Source: Catajapyx aquilonaris (lineage: Eukaryota). From it: 42,305 nucleotides of DNA. The DNA is taken from positions 1 to 42,305 of the forward strand of contig KZ538898.1 in assembly GCA_000934665.2 (NCBI GenBank). Reading direction: 5' to 3'. Of the stretch, positions 31,230 to 39,106 are shown one piece after another (the stretch's first letter is position 1; each line of letters opens with the position of its first letter). Under the pieces are notes generated by a model. It saw only the letters and a program-made list of their open reading frames with translations, did no database searches and was not told the origin of the DNA. Made by a program: the position numbers and the translations under genes.

Positions 31230-33086
31230 TCAATGATTGTGAAGTGTGAAGGGAACGATTGTTTGCCGGTACCGGTACACCATTTCCAGCAAAATGGAGG
31301 CTACGGACACTATCAGTCCGACGCACCAGAAGAAGAATGGGGCGTGCAGGTCCTTGATTGTGTACACATGGAGCGTTGATGATGTCACCTTTGCGGTACC
31401 ACCGATTGTTTCGGAAGTCATAACGTGGTATCGCAAGTTCTCGTTGGTTTTCCACTTTTTAAACAGTCCTGATTCGAAAGTACGGGTCAAACTACGTGTG
31501 AGTCTGTCCGAGTATGGTTCGCCCTTTCCGAACACAGGTCCTCCGTACGCGTGAAGGAAACTGTCTGTGCTGAAAGACAACGAATGTTCCCACTCTCCTT
31601 GCCCAACATGGTATTTCTCCAGGACAGAAACACCGTCAACAAGCACACAAACAAAATCATACTTGTTACACTTCTCTAAGCATGCTCTACGTGTACCCAC
31701 ATCTTTCATATTGCCCTTCATCTCCGTGTATAACCGAGCACTTGCACTTTTTAGCAGAAAATCTGCGATGTTCTTCTCAGGGTTGGATGTCCCCCATGCG
31801 AATTTGGAGTTGACCAGTTCGGACACTGTTGTAGGTATGGGTTCAGTTGGTGGGCTTGTGAATATGGCGACCAGTTTGGTCTTGTAGGTGCAGCATATGA
31901 TCAGTGCGAATACAGAGAAGGATGCGAAAAACATGCGAAATTCGTCTGATGTTGGTGTGAATATGGGCTGTTCTATTAGTATGCGAAATAATAGATTGAA
32001 CGATCTGCTTATAGTGATTCGCTCCTTTCGTGCTAAAAGAACGTATATAAATAGAGCAGATATAATCAGTGTGAAAACAAGCGCAATCCACATTGTCCAA
32101 GTGTATGGAAACACCAGTACTTGCCATGTCCTGACAATTCGCGGATTACGTGTGGCGAAAAACGAATTGATATAAAACACAGGGTATGAATAATCCAGAC
32201 AGTTCACTAAATATTCGTCAAACAAAGTGTAATAAAGAAAGTTGATTTCCCTGTTCTTAAAGTGTCCCACAGCCATATTCGCAATACGGTTATTTTTGCA
32301 CAGATTTTCGTACTTGTCTTCGTTAAACAACACGACATTCACAGTAGCATTGAGCACTGCCTCGTACAGCAAGGCTACATTTTGTAGAAAGTTCAAGTCA
32401 GTAGAGAGTGTTACAGCTCTTGCTTGAGTCACATTCAAAGGCACGTAGAAACCGACTGTGAGTCTCTTACCATATAGACTTATTGAAGTGTCTGGATAAA
32501 AAATTGTCTCATTGTTGTGTGCTGCACTTAGGCTTAAAAGTGAGGGTTCACCCAAGGTGCAATAGAGACACACTGTTGATAGTGTCAGCCCGTTTGGTCC
32601 ATAAGATGCTGATAGTTTGAACTTTATGCCATCAAATGGTGGCTGGATGAGCGAATTTTGTAAGGTTTCGTTGGACAGGAACAAGAACTTGTCCCGTACA
32701 GTCTGTATCCGGACTAAAGATGCGATTTGGACGAATAGATCGCGAATATTGCGGCCACAGGACGCGATGACATAAAACACACATGATGTGTATGGTCTGA
32801 AACTAGGGTCTAACACTGCTTGCATTGTGTTAAATGAGTAGTCAGCCAGTGTGTAATTGCTCGTTTTGTTGATTGTTGTGGTCACTAATGTCACGTACTT
32901 GTTGTTCAGTTCAGAAAATGGGAGTTGCAATGTTCCGTCCCAGGCTATGACTTGGGTACATCCAGAAGCTTCTGTCCGATGCACTCTGTCCATAAACGAT
33001 GACACTATCTTATCCGGACGAATAGGTCTGAGTACAATGCTGTGACAATGTGCAGAAAGTAACGAACACATCAGTATGATCCACAT
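31230..33086 (-). CDS. Divergent ionotropic receptor (IR, variant iGluR chemoreceptor), single exon, 618 aa
   Basis: Signal peptide; DYSYP (S1); M1 PYTWTMWIALVFTL; M3 ending CTYKTKLVAIFTSP (equivalent of SYTANLAAFLT); S2 end FESGLFKKW; M4 preceded by IKDLHAPFFFWCVG. No introns. Confidence 0.88.
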   Translation of the reverse strand: MWIILMCSLLSAHCHSIVLRPIRPDKIVSSFMDRVHRTEASGCTQVIAWDGTLQLPFSELNNKYVTLVTTTINKTSNYTLADYSFNTMQAVLDPSFRPYTSCVFYVIASCGRNIRDLFVQIASLVRIQTVRDKFLFLSNETLQNSLIQPPFDGIKFKLSASYGPNGLTLSTVCLYCTLGEPSLLSLSAAHNNETIFYPDTSISLYGKRLTVGFYVPLNVTQARAVTLSTDLNFLQNVALLYEAVLNATVNVVLFNEDKYENLCKNNRIANMAVGHFKNREINFLYYTLFDEYLVNCLDYSYPVFYINSFFATRNPRIVRTWQVLVFPYTWTMWIALVFTLIISALFIYVLLARKERITISRSFNLLFRILIEQPIFTPTSDEFRMFFASFSVFALIICCTYKTKLVAIFTSPPTEPIPTTVSELVNSKFAWGTSNPEKNIADFLLKSASARLYTEMKGNMKDVGTRRACLEKCNKYDFVCVLVDGVSVLEKYHVGQGEWEHSLSFSTDSFLHAYGGPVFGKGEPYSDRLTRSLTRTFESGLFKKWKTNENLRYHVMTSETIGGTAKVTSSTLHVYTIKDLHAPFFFWCVGLIVSVASILLEMVYRYRQTIVPFTLHNH

Positions 33087-33719
33087 CGTCAGAAAATTTT
33101 CCGTGACTGCCCCAATTTTCCTTTACAAAGAATGTGGCCTGGCAATCACTAGAAATAATTAATAGAATGCACCATAGTCTGGCTGATAGTAGGAAAATAT
33201 TCGTCACGCCCCGTCTTTTCACGACGACACTATACGGGTGTGAAATATGGCATGTTTTGTTACGAATGTTCTTTTCTGAAGGTAGACTCTGACTTAGTCG
33301 ATTGTGACCTTCGGAACAATATTACATTTTGTGACTTACAAATTGACTTGCACGAACTTGCCCAGCAGACACCTCGTTACTGCAATGTGATCAGTCATTC
33401 TACGTGAAAGGCATATGTCGTGTAAATAAGCGATCATGATCTTTCTGGCTTTGTTTTGATAAGGCTATTGAGCCATCATGTGTATACCAAAATGTACACA
33501 ACAGAGGTGTTGCGGAAGAAATACTGTTGTCCACTTATGATGTTGACCGCTCGCCAATATTAGGGTTACACCACAATCAATGGGCCACATGCCCAAGGGA
33601 ATTTCACACATTAGGCAACAATGTTTGATAAGTTATGTAACCTACATGTGTACCATATGTATCAGAATTTTCAATGATGCACAACTGTAATAATATTCAG
33701 ACAAATTCATTCCCTTTTA

Positions 33720-34281
33720 TTAATCTGAATCCGATGAATCATGACCTGCATCATGATCTGCACCAATCTCTACCACATCATCGGGTTTCACTTCAGGGAT
33801 GTCAATATTGGGGTTGTAGACAATCTGTCCATGACGACTAACGATTGCAACTGTGAAACTCGTTCTGCTGACCCCCATGAACCTGCAAATGAATATAATT
33901 CTCCATAGCACACATTTTCAGTCAGATTTCCCATTCTCTGTTAACACATTACCTGCCGGACACCCTCCCAGGATCAATCCAGATGGTGAAATCAAGTGGT
34001 AGCCCAAGGTCCTTATAGGCAATCCCACACTCATTAGCTACCTTCTCAATCATGGAGTACTTAGGAAAGTACCTGCTGCTGAAAATGCACCTGTAACCCA
34101 GGCCCCTATCAGGGGTCTGGGGGTACCAGTGACCAGTGTACTTCTCCAGAAGCTTCTCCTTCATGAGTTGCTTAAACTTGTCTCTCACGACAGCGCCGCC
34201 TTCTTCCTCACCACGAAAACAACCATTCTTGACGATCATACGATATAAGAATTCAACCCCAGCGGTTACCTCTGCCTTCAT
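33720..34281 (-). CDS. BTG/Tob (APRO) family protein, BTG3/BTG4-like
   Basis: Exons 34281-33953 and 33882-33720. MKAEV...V.FL start, Box A KYTGHWYPQTPDRGLGYRCI, Box B LGLPLDFTIWIDPGRV. An in-frame upstream extension to 34347 is possible. Confidence 0.9.
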
Positions 34282-35001
34282 AGCCGGAGGTTCAGGTGGG
34301 TCAATGAGGACATAGTATGTGGTTGTTAAGGTGGGTGTCCTCAACATACTAGGAAATTAAACATACTCCATTGTAAATGAATTTGTGCCTACTACAAATG
34401 GTAAACCTAATTCATGCAATAAAGTACCTTAGATATGCTCAGAGCAACGCAGAGCGACGTTATCAATCTGCAGCAATGTGTGACCAAGTTGATGCCAACA
34501 GCAAACTGTCCAAAAACCAAAGAGGTAAAAGCGCCAAGCACGCCACCAGCGACGGTAAAAGCGCCAACCGACTCTGCAGCGGCCGTTGGGTGGAATTAGA
34601 CTTTCCCGCCATCCAATCAACCAAAGGCGGTTACGGTGATTATTTTTTTTAAATTAAACCTTGAAAGGAAGATGATGGTGATGTCATAAGATTGCATCTC
34701 TTGTTCTTATTAGCACAACCATGGTTATTCCCCTTCTCCATAACAGTTGAAACGAAACTGGATTTCTCTGAAAACATAATTTTTTTCAATCATTTATTTT
34801 GAACACACAAAAAAAGCGAGTAAAATCCCCGAGTTGGAGATGACTGTTTTTTTCGTTCAACTTTACATTGCCATATTGATGCAATGATTTGCATCAAGGC
34901 CCTGCTGAAGTGTGAGAAATAGCCACTATTTTAGCGAGACACGTTTACAAAATGTACTGCAATATAGAACAGCTCAATGTCAAAGTATACTCGGGGGTAG
35001 T

Positions 35002-36462
35002 TCATCCCTTTCTGTCCACAATTTTAGTGAGTAAGAATCTGCACAGATCCTGAATCTTTGGGTTCGTCATGTCTGAAATATCCTGGAGTATGGACATCCT
35101 GGAAGAGTCCTGGAACTCCCTGTAGATATCTGGGAGATGGAGGTCAGTGTAGAGGCTCTTCACTCGGGACACGTGCTGGGGGTCATCGGATCCGTAGCAT
35201 TCCTGCCATGTGAGAGACAAACACAGGGAGTGACTTTCTCGTGTCATATGTGTCCAGAAGTCATTTAGGGGAAGAAGTGTTGTGCCTGTACCTCTAGGAC
35301 CGTCCTTTGGTCGTGGTCCGCGTGCATGAGGGCAGTGACCACCAGCCAGGAGCACTTTCCCTCCTGGATGTCCGTCCCCACCTTCCCCATGACCTCTGGG
35401 TCACCGTAGCAGTCCAAGTAGTCGTCCTGGACTTGGAAGAGGTGCCCAATCTTCAAAAGGACATCCTCCACCTCGGAGTGACTTTCCTTATCAGACATGC
35501 CGGCCTGTGACGACAACAACCAAAATGATATAGGATGGGATAGGACACTATATAAGATGCTATACCATACACCCAACAGGTACCGGGAGGTAGAGGGTGG
35601 TACCCCATTGTTGGCTCGGATGACTCACCATGATCATGGCTAGTCTGGCTGGACCATAGAAGCAATAGTTCGAGGTCTTGTACTTGACTATTGTTGCGTA
35701 TCTCTCTTCAGTGAAGAGGTTGAGCTGGGGCTTGCTACCAGACGAGGTCAGGAGATCCAAGCAATGGCCCTTCTCAGTCTTGAACATTATCTGAGACAAT
35801 AGAGCATGTGAACCAACACTTCTAGAATACATCCGTCCAATCAGACGCTTCCATTAAATCATCATACCTCGTTCAAGAAATTTCGGCATTCCCTATAATA
35901 TGGCTGGTCTCGGTGGTACATCCTGAGGATGTGGAACGCCGACCTTTCCAAGAGCAAAGCGTCGTTGAATGCCTTTGGTCCCAACCCGTTGGTCAGATGC
36001 CAGCATGGACGGCCTCTTCTGGTCGTGGAATTGTCCATTACGTCATGGCCTATCAAACACGCTGTTTGAAACTGTATATGGAAGGAGAAAAATAAATTAA
36101 TAAAATCCATTGTTTGATATACCACGTTCTAGTTCGCTCTTCTCACCAGCTCGATGCTCCAGCCCATGATGTGGATCAATTTGGTGGTTTTGTCTGTGAC
36201 GCTTTGCTCCTCTGCCAGAATGGAAAACATTTTGGCCATCATCCTTCCACGGGTCGGTTGCCTTCCAAGATGGTTGTATTTTAACACCTGCAAAGACAAC
36301 AGTGAGATAGTGCATACATCAGTAAACTGGAGTCCTTACCTTTTTGATCCAGGTGTCTACCTCACTCAATCCTTTCTCGTTCTTCCCTGAGGAGGTCAAG
36401 GCCTGGATGACCTCAGAGGTCAGAGCCAGAAAGGCGTCCTGGTCGCAGTCCTTAGCTCCCAT
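35002..36462 (-). CDS. Farnesyl diphosphate synthase-like paralogue A (divergent active site), 347 aa
   Basis: Six phase-0 exons: 36462-36340, 36287-36147, 36071-35868, 35790-35629, 35504-35292, 35202-35002. [30 protein letters not shown] and KT are intact. The FARM reads HDVMD. Confidence 0.88.
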
Positions 36463-37611
36463 ATTCAGGACAAGGTCTGAAGTGATCGATGTTCGTCTGT
36501 TCCGACTCCCTCGCAAGACTGCTTCGGATCCAGTTTGGTTATCTGACTTTAAATAATCTAACCTCACGTGAAAGTGCGCCCTTGGATCTAACAAGAAGTT
36601 TTTACCTTTAAAAAAAATCATACTTGAATGTTCTTATGAAGTTGCTTCAGCGCGAAAGTGCTGCCATCAAACAGTACGTAAATATCTTTATCTCTCTAAT
36701 ACAAAGAAGCCTTATACTTGTATGAGTATATACCATCCTGTATAATATAGGGAAAGTACAGTATACATGTGTAAGAGAGATGCACTTACACACAAAAAAA
36801 AATCGGTTCTGCTGTTGTTGGTATTAAACTTTCAAAGAAGTATATATGAAGTCTTTCCTAAGATTGCATCTCTTGTTCTTATACCAACCATGGTTATTCC
36901 CCTTCTCCGCATCAGGAAACAGATATGAGTTTCTTTCATTTCTTTCATCATTTTTAAGAATAAATGTAAAATTCCCCCACGAAGGCGATGAGATTGTCAT
37001 CACCTCTTCACATGGCCATATTGATGCAATAATATAGATTTTAAGCTCTGTAAAAAATTGGGGAAATTCGTATTTATTTAGCAAGACACTTTTGCAAAGT
37101 GCACTGCGTAGCACATTTGAATTGCTCATCAATGCCAAAGTGCATTGAGCCTTAGTTAAGAATCACTGGGGGGGGATCAACCTATTTACATTTCAGTGCA
37201 TTGGCCACTTAATAACAGTTGCTCACATTCATAATCAAGCTGGCATTATACGTTTATACCAGAGCCTCGAGGCAGACTTGTCAAACTGAAGAAGTGTCGA
37301 AAAAAGTGTCAACATCCCTCTGGGTCTGCCTGATTTCAACTCTCTTTTTTGCTACATAATTTTTGGGCAATAATGCCAGGTCTTACGAGCTTATGATAAT
37401 TTCAATAACCTTCTTGCCAAAATATTTTTCCTAGAAATGACACAAGTTGCTTCATCAGGGATCATTTCTTATTAAACTGTTGCAGCATCAAATATCTTTT
37501 ATGGGGCACATGTTTACTACTGTAAGTAGCATATACTCATATAAAATTAAGAAACAATACGATCTTCTACATAGACACGATTAAAACATGGTGGGCTCCG
37601 ATGAGTAGTTC

Positions 37612-39106
37612 TCATCCCTTCCTGTCCACAATTTTATTGAGCATGAAGCTGCATACACACTGCAACTTTGAGTTCGTCATGTAGGAAATGTCCTGGAATA
37701 TGGACATCCTGGAGGAGTCCTGGAACTCCCTATAGACATCTGGAAGACTGAGGTCAGTGTAGAGGCTCTTCACTCGGGACACGTGCTGGGGGTCATCGGA
37801 TCCGTAGCATTCCTGGCATGTGAGAGACAAACACAGGGAGTGACGTTCTCGTGTCATATGTGTCCAGAAGTCACTTAGAGGAAGAAGTGTTGCGCCTGTA
37901 CCTCTAGGACCGTCCTCTGGTCGTGGTCAGCATGCGTGAGGGCAGTGACCACCAGCCAGGAGCACTTTCCCTCCTGGATGTCCGTCCCCACCTTCCCCAT
38001 GACCTCGGGGTCACCGTAGCAGTCCAGGTAGTCATCCTGGACTTGGAAGAGGTGCCCAATCTTCAAAAGGACATCCTCCACCTCGGAATAAACGTCCTTG
38101 TCAGACATTCCAGCCTGTGAAGACAACACGACCAAAAGGTCAGGGTTTGACTACGTATCCTTTAGCATCGCGTCATCGCGTCATCAAATAACTCACCATT
38201 TTCATTGCCAATTCGACAGGAAGACAAAATGAATAGTACGCGGTCTTGTACTTGACTATTGTTGCGTATCTCTCTTCAGTGAAAATGTCGAGCTGGGGCT
38301 TGCTTCCGGATGACGTCAAAAGGTCCAAGCACTGGCCCTTCTCAGTCTTGAAAATTATCTTGGAAAAACGAACATATCGAGCTAAATATTTCTCATCTAA
38401 GCATAATTATTAATTCATAAGGTATATGTGATAATTATTTCATATACTGTACATGACCTACAACAAGTACCTCGCTTAATAAGTCGACGCACTCGTCGTA
38501 ATATGGCTGGTCGCCGAGGTACTTTCCAAGGATATGAAAAGCGGCCATTTCCATGAGCAAGGCGTCGTTGAAGGCTTTTGGTCCCAACCCGTTGGTCAAA
38601 TACCAGCAGGTGCGACCTCTTCTGGTCTCAGAATTGTCCATTATGTCGTCTGCCATCAAACAAAATGCCTGCAACTGTGGGGAAACAAAAGCATTTACCA
38701 TCCATTAGTGATACTGATTAGCCACTTGTTAGGTCAATAAGTACGTATATTGGAATAGACATACCAACTCGATGCTCCAGCCCATGATGTGGGCCAGCTT
38801 GATATTTTCGTCAGTCACGTCTTCTTTCTCAGCCAGGACGGAAAATGCTTTTGCCACCATTGTGCCTCGGGTCATCTTACCTCCAGGCAGGTTGTATGTC
38901 AATACCTGCAATGCCAGCAATGTAAAAGATGTTGCATATATAGGCCTACATGGTCCATTTCAATTAAAAATTCAACTGCTCACCTTTTCGAACCAGGCAT
39001 CGAAGTCCCGCAAATTCTCATCTTCCTTTTCAGAAGATATCGAGCTTTGTATGACCTCAGAGGTCAGCGCCAAAAAAGAATCCAAGTTGCAGTTCTTGGC
39101 TTCCAT
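37612..39106 (-). CDS. FDPS: Farnesyl diphosphate synthase paralogue B, 347 aa
   Basis: Six exons: 39106-38984, 38905-38765, 38674-38471, 38358-38197, 38114-37902, 37812-37612. Motifs [58 protein letters not shown]. Confidence 0.92.

Follow-up and report, generated by a model that had tools for sequence, protein, structure and literature searches.

The genome of Catajapyx aquilonaris contains two neighbouring FPPS-type genes, one of which has an altered active site, raising the question of whether that copy is still an ordinary FPPS, has taken on another function, or is being lost. We addressed this question in a window comprising the whole stretch of 42,305 nucleotides of contig KZ538898.1 (assembly GCA_000934665.2). 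The altered gene, copy A (35002..36462, minus strand), runs from ATG to TGA and encodes 347 aa in six exons (36462-36340, 36287-36147, 36071-35868, 35790-35629, 35504-35292 and 35202-35002). Copy B (37612..39106, minus strand) is a canonical FPPS gene, likewise of six exons (39106-38984, 38905-38765, 38674-38471, 38358-38197, 38114-37902 and 37812-37612) and 347 aa, with the motifs DDIMD, GGKMTRG, GQCLD, KTAYYSF and DDYLD. The two genes are arranged in tandem, head to tail on the minus strand, with B upstream and A 1150 nt downstream, and their proteins are 75.5% identical. They have the same exon lengths (123/141/204/162/213/201 nt, all multiples of 3), and all introns are phase 0 and bounded by GT..AG, the five of copy A measuring 52-124 nt. 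The reading frame of A is open over 347 codons, with TGA at 35004-35002. A preliminary description of this DNA had called A intact, with exon lengths shared with B and GT-AG splice sites, and the rebuilt exons, all five introns and the open frame bear this out. A tblastn search of A against the window matched only A and B and revealed no third FPPS copy. When the exons of copy A were scanned singly, exons 3, 4 and 5 each matched Pfam PF00348 (polyprenyl_synt) at or above its cut-off of 27 bits (E = 5.6e-12, 1.8e-06 and 2e-23, respectively), and the family profile thus assigns A to the trans-isoprenyl diphosphate synthase fold. Exon 3 of copy B matched canonical FPPS chains (PDB 1fps, 4p0v and others) at E ~1e-16.

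A second in-frame ATG lies 159 nt 5' of the copy A start, with no intervening stop (36463-36621, minus strand), and its use would add 53 residues. Copy B has a stop 15 nt upstream of its start, so no comparable N-terminal extension is available to it. The annotated starts of both copies share the context GAATATGG, which makes the shorter ATG the more likely translation start of copy A. An AATAAA at 34793..34798 (minus strand), 204 nt past the stop codon, is a consensus match that may represent its polyadenylation signal. The genes surrounding the pair show no relation to terpenoid metabolism. Downstream of copy A lies a BTG-domain ORF (33949-34356, minus strand). Beyond it, ~2 kb downstream of copy A, comes an intronless 630-aa ORF (31230-33122, minus strand) whose ligand-gated ion channel domain (PF00060, E = 5.8e-09) marks a probable chemoreceptor gene of the ionotropic-receptor type. 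The other neighbours are a galactosyltransferase fragment, a TOG/CLASP-like exon and a serine-palmitoyltransferase small-subunit-like ORF.

We then compared the active sites of the two copies, and found every motif substitution that had been reported for A. The first Asp-rich motif (FARM; 36033..36047, minus strand) reads HDVMD in A and DDIMD in B, a change of Asp97 to His (CAT in A, GAC in B). In the IPP-diphosphate loop (IBM-1; 36246..36269, minus strand), A has LGRQPTRG where B has PGGKMTRG, so that Gly50 is replaced by Arg and Lys51 by Gln, while Arg54 is kept; at the Gly-Lys pair numbered G70/K71 in PMC10108439, A therefore has Arg-Gln, whereas B retains the canonical residues. The chain-length region 5' of the FARM (36048..36065, minus strand) reads TACLIG in A and AFCLMA in B. 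Position -5 is consequently Ala in A and Phe in B, and position -4 is Cys in both, which leaves A without an aromatic residue and B atypical at -4. The GQCLD of B is GHCLD in A (35755..35769, minus strand) through a Gln165His substitution at the equivalent of human Gln171. The KT helix (IBM-4; 35650..35679, minus strand) keeps its Lys, Thr and Tyr but carries Ala196Ser, Tyr197Asn, Ser199Cys, Cys201Tyr and Leu202Gly. IBM-1 and IBM-4 are the only IBM motifs in which A differs from B. RRG and KT are identical between the copies, and the second Asp-rich motif (SARM), DDYLD (35412..35426, minus strand), occurs in A in the context FQVQDDYLD and is identical in protein sequence to that of B. A thus has the SARM and the KT Lys and Thr of a canonical FPPS, although its SARM falls in a gene-conversion tract described below. 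Across the pocket, A retains Arg54, Gln90, Arg106/107, Lys194, Thr195, Tyr198, the SARM, Lys251 and the C-terminal Arg. Canonical eukaryotic FPPS (human and avian; PDB 1fps, 4p0v and others) agree with A in fold family and length and in the SARM, RRG, KT and C-terminal Arg, but also have a first FARM Asp, the Gly-Lys of IBM-1, the GQxxD Gln and an aromatic floor, all absent from A. Three key codons each differ from those of B by two nucleotides (GAC to CAT, AAG to CAA and GGT to AGG), which suggests that these active-site changes are old. Sequencing error as their source was rejected for the same two-base distance.

The residues lost from A are among the best conserved in the family. In an alignment with 111 other FPPS, 58 columns were at least 90% conserved; B retains 57 of them and A 53, with column 335 differing in both copies. 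The losses specific to A (G50R, K51Q, D97H and Q165H) fall at positions at least 95% conserved in the 111 other FPPS, and among the 109-111 other sequences with a residue in those columns, none shares that of A. The FARM pattern DD[ILMV][EFMQ]D matched 98 of the 111 other rows, and the HDVMD of A departs from it. Among 201 FARM-context matches in 273 stored proteins, 195 had DD and HD was found only in A's own exon; the remainder comprised two further true variants (SD and ED) and three off-target matches. One FPPS-like protein with a non-Asp first FARM residue (SDIMD) is the 259-aa P0106. The LQAFFLV segment normally present is missing from it, and the sequence may stem from a gene that is degenerate or was wrongly predicted. 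IPP-contact residues are kept at 13 of 17 positions in A and 16 of 17 in B; of the 111 other rows, 80 have 16 or 17 of them and 15 have no more than 13.

The changes in A are also concentrated in the pocket. Taking the FARM and IBM motifs as defined in Table 1 of PMC10108439, 32 motif positions lie within exons 1-4, and 12 of these differ between A and B. When B was compared with its transcript-derived relative P0170, only 2 of the 32 motif positions differed, against 102 of 172 other positions (Fisher p = 8e-9). This contrast suggests that, in A, the pocket has escaped its usual constraint or come under a different one, with constraint persisting elsewhere in the protein. Among changes polarised to A, 14 of 30 fell in the most conserved third of columns, compared with 3 of 11 for B, a contrast that is indicative only, as the polarisation rule favours conserved columns.

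The roles of the altered positions have been described in other FPPS, and human numbering equals the A/B number plus 6, consistently at both Asp-rich motifs. Asp103, Asp107 and Asp243 of human FPPS hold three Mg ions (PMC3343387), and the first and last FARM Asp have been described as essential for catalysis (PMC7953025). Lys71 and Arg74 in the numbering of PMC10108439, which are residues 51 and 54 in A and B, bind the IPP diphosphate. In the human enzyme, the Gln171 side chain normally forms a hydrogen bond with that of Asp103, the first FARM Asp (PMC5643135), so that both members of an interacting pair are His in A (residues 97 and 165). Copy A has 13 His in total and B has 6. All seven extra His lie at sites that differ between the copies, including 47, 97, 113 and 165 near the pocket, and seven gains in 85 differing sites are more than a 2% background would give (binomial p = 0.0017).

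To gauge selection, we estimated substitution rates between the copies. In exons 1-4, dS was 0.73-0.97 and dN/dS 0.21-0.25 across four methods (NG86, LWL85, YN00 and ML), values unlike the dN/dS near 1 that had been put forward as the mark of a decaying pseudogene. Pairwise estimates from two coding sequences with dS near saturation average over the whole history of the pair, and a recent loss of function in A would be compatible with them. Introns 1-4 and both flanks align at only ~50% between A and B and are essentially unalignable, indicating that the duplication is old. In a relative-rate comparison of exons 1-4 with P0170 as outgroup, 25 changes were unique to A and 9 to B (p = 0.006); A was the faster copy with 10 of 10 outgroups, 6 of them at p<0.05. 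Splitting dN by this 25:9 ratio gives, by simple arithmetic, an omega of ~0.3 for A and ~0.1 for B. Copy A has thus evolved ~3x faster than B, with the excess concentrated in the pocket motifs. When we placed 100 neutral substitutions in exons 1-4 by simulation, only 2.3% of 4000 runs remained free of a stop. These results suggest that selection on A is relaxed or altered, yet far from neutral. The preliminary description had taken A for an intact FPPS paralogue with a rewired active site, and dN/dS and the motif counts agree in showing a maintained duplicate, not a decaying one, whose changes are concentrated in the substrate and metal pocket.

The 3' part of the two genes has been homogenised. 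A gene-conversion tract pairs A 35140..35477 with B 38087-37750 (minus strand), with 12 differences in 338 nt and flanks that differ by 17-30%; its longest identical run is 70 nt. The tract spans most of exon 5, the whole of intron 5 and the first 63 nt of exon 6. Intron 5 is identical at 84 of 89 positions (94%), compared with ~50% for introns 1-4, and dS between A and B declines steadily from 1.4 in exon 1 to 0.2 in exon 6. Together, these gradients suggest repeated exchange between A and B, biased to the 3' end. Both the SARM and the following Lys fall inside the tract, and their identity to B is therefore not independent evidence of selection or function in A. The SARM had been described as untouched; it is indeed identical to that of B, but it belongs to a tract shared with B, and the identity has little bearing on selection. 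Conversion from B could mimic constraint throughout the 3' third of A. Unique changes in exons 5-6 numbered 0-2 in A and 3-6 in B, with fewer in A for 10 of 10 outgroups. Since conversion, the exonic part of the tract has accumulated six synonymous differences and one non-synonymous difference. If A alone had been evolving neutrally, 5.5-10.9 non-synonymous changes would be expected there (Poisson p = 0.027 to 0.0002), the range reflecting a neutral rate taken from the intron or from synonymous sites.

We next placed the pair among its relatives. A first tree (quick method, LG+G4) contained 113 rows, namely A, B and 111 stored proteins of 320-480 aa, 109 of which aligned to B over at least 280 residues. 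A and B were sisters (support 100) on a long stem of 0.46, next to P0170, within the arthropod part of the tree and away from the mite rows; in the ESM Atlas, the nearest cluster to P0170 is in Arthropoda. A second, careful tree (LG+C20) was built from 44 of the 113 rows, comprising the arthropod clade and a few outgroups with 69 rows omitted, and was restricted to the columns of A residues 11-210, leaving the converted region out. A and B were again sisters (100/100), with a stem of 0.58 and branches of 0.35 for A and 0.10 for B, a 3.5x difference. Conversion might in principle make an older paralogue look like a sister of B, but this explanation of A was rejected, as exon 1-4 columns by themselves still give the sister grouping at 100/100. 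The canonical termite FPPS P0174 (Coptotermes) is 50% identical to B, and A and B form a separate clade. The sister grouping indicates that the duplication is lineage-specific and separate in origin from those in Lepidoptera and Blattodea. The phylogeny proposed in the preliminary description accordingly supports a lineage-specific origin, from a tree in which lepidopteran type-1 sequences are absent.

Searches for closer relatives returned distant FPPS only. Two large protein libraries contained no relative closer than ~53% identity to B over its length. In a protein-representative library, exon 3 of A gave 748 matches, the best 50-60% identical over the exon, with A, B and close relatives absent. 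Homologous-protein searches yielded five candidates, none significant, for exon 3 of A among longer proteins, two matches of 46-52% identity for the A+B exon-3 alignment, and, for exon 5, 1183 matches without close relatives, the best 56-74% identical over 71 aa. Metagenome contigs contributed two loci of 47% and 63% identity, the latter over 24 residues, and no useful relatives. Across these protein-library and metagenome-contig searches, no other genome yielded an orthologue of A.

Having established that A is a diverged duplicate, we compared it with insect IDS-type terpene synthases (MhTPS, PsTPS1 and others; PMC6140472, PMC10108439), the class to which it had been provisionally linked. 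As described in the passages of these papers used here, such synthases resemble A in their origin from FPPS duplicates, in their non-aromatic -4/-5 positions and in having IBM-1 as a hot spot of change. They keep both FARM and SARM (PMC6140472) and lose most IPP contacts, with ~10% kept and four or more IBM motifs affected (PMC10108439); A shows the reverse. Of the three marks, A has only the non-aromatic -4/-5 residues (Ala and Cys). Its first FARM Asp is His, so that only one of the two Asp-rich motifs is whole, and with 13 of 17 contacts kept it has undergone no widespread loss of IPP residues. Two TPS-like tephritid-type rows in our alignment keep 6 of 17 IPP contacts with DD intact, and all long-branch FPPS-like insect rows among those listed (n = 7, including these two) have DD in the FARM. 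The proposal that A is a terpene synthase is weakened by this pattern, the opposite of that in known synthases; such a reading of its sequence is possible but not favoured.

Closer parallels exist among FPPS paralogues with a defective FARM. Lepidopteran type-1 FPPS has NDxxE instead of DDxxD and His/Gln at -5/-4, and CfFPPS1 of Choristoneura fumiferana was inactive alone with several metals and synergistic with CfFPPS2, which suggests a heterodimer (PMC7953025). Like A, type-1 FPPS exists beside a more conventional copy, has its first FARM Asp replaced and is non-aromatic at -5/-4. Its FARM is NDxxE whereas that of A is HDxxD, and the lepidopteran pair is old and very divergent, whereas A and B are sisters (100/100) of 75.5% identity and independent origin. 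Neither the missing IBM-1 Lys nor the Gln-to-His substitution of A is mentioned for type-1 FPPS in the portion of PMC7953025 drawn on here. Having neither NDxxE nor His/Gln at -5/-4, and compared in a tree without type-1 sequences, A is analogous to type-1 FPPS rather than a member of it. Blattodea carry an FPPS duplication older than the group itself, and in a termite genome the two copies lie in tandem (PMC13143122). The FPPS-like member (EneoA) has a FARM and SARM unable to bind metal, and the recombinant protein was without IDS or TPS activity (PMC13143122). The authors went no further than to conclude that their FPPS-like proteins are unlikely to take part in terpenoid synthesis. These genes resemble A in their tandem position with a canonical FPPS and in a disrupted metal motif. 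They differ in that both motifs are disrupted, whereas A has one altered FARM residue and an intact SARM kept by conversion, and A falls outside their clade. A literature search found no paper that mentions HDxxD together with 'diphosphate synthase'. On sequence grounds, A appears to be a third, independent and younger FARM-defective FPPS paralogue, with a different FARM change and an intact SARM.

Overall, copy A is very probably a live, selected gene that is no longer an ordinary FPPS. We tentatively prefer the interpretation that it encodes a catalytically impaired FPPS subunit or partner subunit. A would have originated within this lineage through tandem duplication of the canonical gene B and been kept as a folded protein under purifying selection, while its active site was specifically remodelled and ordinary Mg-dependent IPP condensation presumably lost or crippled. 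As a pseudoenzyme, it could pair with itself or with B and alter the activity or product of B. Since FPPS functions in dimeric form and the scaffold and most substrate contacts are preserved in A, that of an impaired subunit is its most likely role. The partner role, which the preliminary description had also raised, is modelled on that suggested for lepidopteran type-1 FPPS and fits the inactive FPPS-like genes of cockroaches and termites. With 13 of 17 IPP contacts, the other FARM Asp residues, the SARM and both catalytic Lys still in place, A could have residual or altered catalysis.

Three other explanations make different sense of the same substitutions. The strongest of them, which we nevertheless regard as doubtful, is that A is a neofunctionalised enzyme on the FPPS scaffold, either an IDS-derived terpene synthase or another diphosphate-ionising activity, in which the paired His97 and His165 may favour Co, Mn or Zn at the metal site. 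The Ala and Cys at -5/-4 are a mark of IDS-type terpene synthases (PMC6140472), and Gly70Arg, the loss of Lys71 and Ser219Cys resemble changes in predicted TPS-like papilionid paralogues (PMC10108439). The conversion of two interacting residues to His among seven His gains in 85 differing sites (p = 0.0017), in a protein otherwise under purifying selection, would also fit a new chemistry. Against this, the characterised IDS-type synthases, as excerpted from these sources, preserve FARM and SARM at the expense of IPP contacts, whereas A has given up the FARM Asp and kept 13 of 17 contacts. All seven long-branch FPPS-like insect rows listed keep DD, HD is confined to A among the 201 FARM-context matches, and the Cys that IDS-type enzymes have after RRG is retained. 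A more specific form of this idea is improbable: an independent arthropod recruitment of the FPPS scaffold in which the first FARM Asp and the Gln of GQxxD became two His, joined by His at 47 and 113, creating a new transition-metal or acid-base site with a chemistry unlike that of FPPS or FARM-retaining IDS-type TPS, while conversion with B preserved the SARM half.

It is rather unlikely that A has recently lost its function and entered early decay, its open frame and low dN/dS reflecting past function and patching by conversion from B. The loss of four residues otherwise invariant in 109-111 FPPS, a branch 3.5x that of B (0.35 vs 0.10) and the coincidence of its best-conserved part with the conversion tract would fit such decay. 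However, stops, frameshifts and splice-site losses are all absent, 53 of 57 highly conserved columns are intact, and the active-site codons, two nucleotides from those of B, point to old changes. Non-synonymous changes have been deficient since conversion, and in exons 5-6, also outside the tract, A has fewer unique changes than B. We also consider it improbable that A still works as a prenyl diphosphate synthase of changed character, making a longer or shorter product, using another metal or having little activity. The retained Arg54, Gln90, Arg106/107, Lys194, Thr195, Tyr198, SARM, Lys251 and C-terminal Arg would suit such an enzyme, and Ala at -5 would open the chain-length floor, much as a Phe-to-small substitution turned MhFPPS into a GGPPS (PMC6140472). 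Yet the first FARM Asp is described as essential (PMC7953025), the IPP-binding Lys is gone, and the residues that A has at these sites are found in 0 of 111 other synthases.

The two proteins also differ markedly in charge. Copy B is unusually acidic, with a pI of 4.61 and a net charge of ~-23; the core pI of 109 other FPPS goes no lower than 4.79. Copy A has a pI of 6.12 and a net charge of -5.4. At the 85 sites where they differ, A has 9 Arg and 7 His, and B has 17 Asp or Glu. This contrast could be relevant to a preference for hetero- or homodimers. Copy B has a peculiarity of its own at -5/-4 (38653-38658), where Phe-Cys replaces the usual two aromatics, P0170 having Phe-Phe. A non-aromatic residue at -4 makes an aphid FPPS bifunctional for GPP and FPP (PMC7953025), and by analogy copy B may release GPP.

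FPPS duplicates have been the raw material for the repeated origin of insect pheromone and defence terpene synthases, and FARM-defective FPPS paralogues are kept in at least two lineages, moths on the one hand and cockroaches plus termites on the other. The A/B pair is much younger, at 75.5% identity, with few pocket changes and conversion ongoing, which would make it a tractable system for the role of 'dead' FPPS copies. It could also show the order of substitutions as an FPPS leaves primary metabolism. If A does modulate B, this would bear on how the supply of sesquiterpenoid hormone precursors is controlled in Catajapyx aquilonaris.
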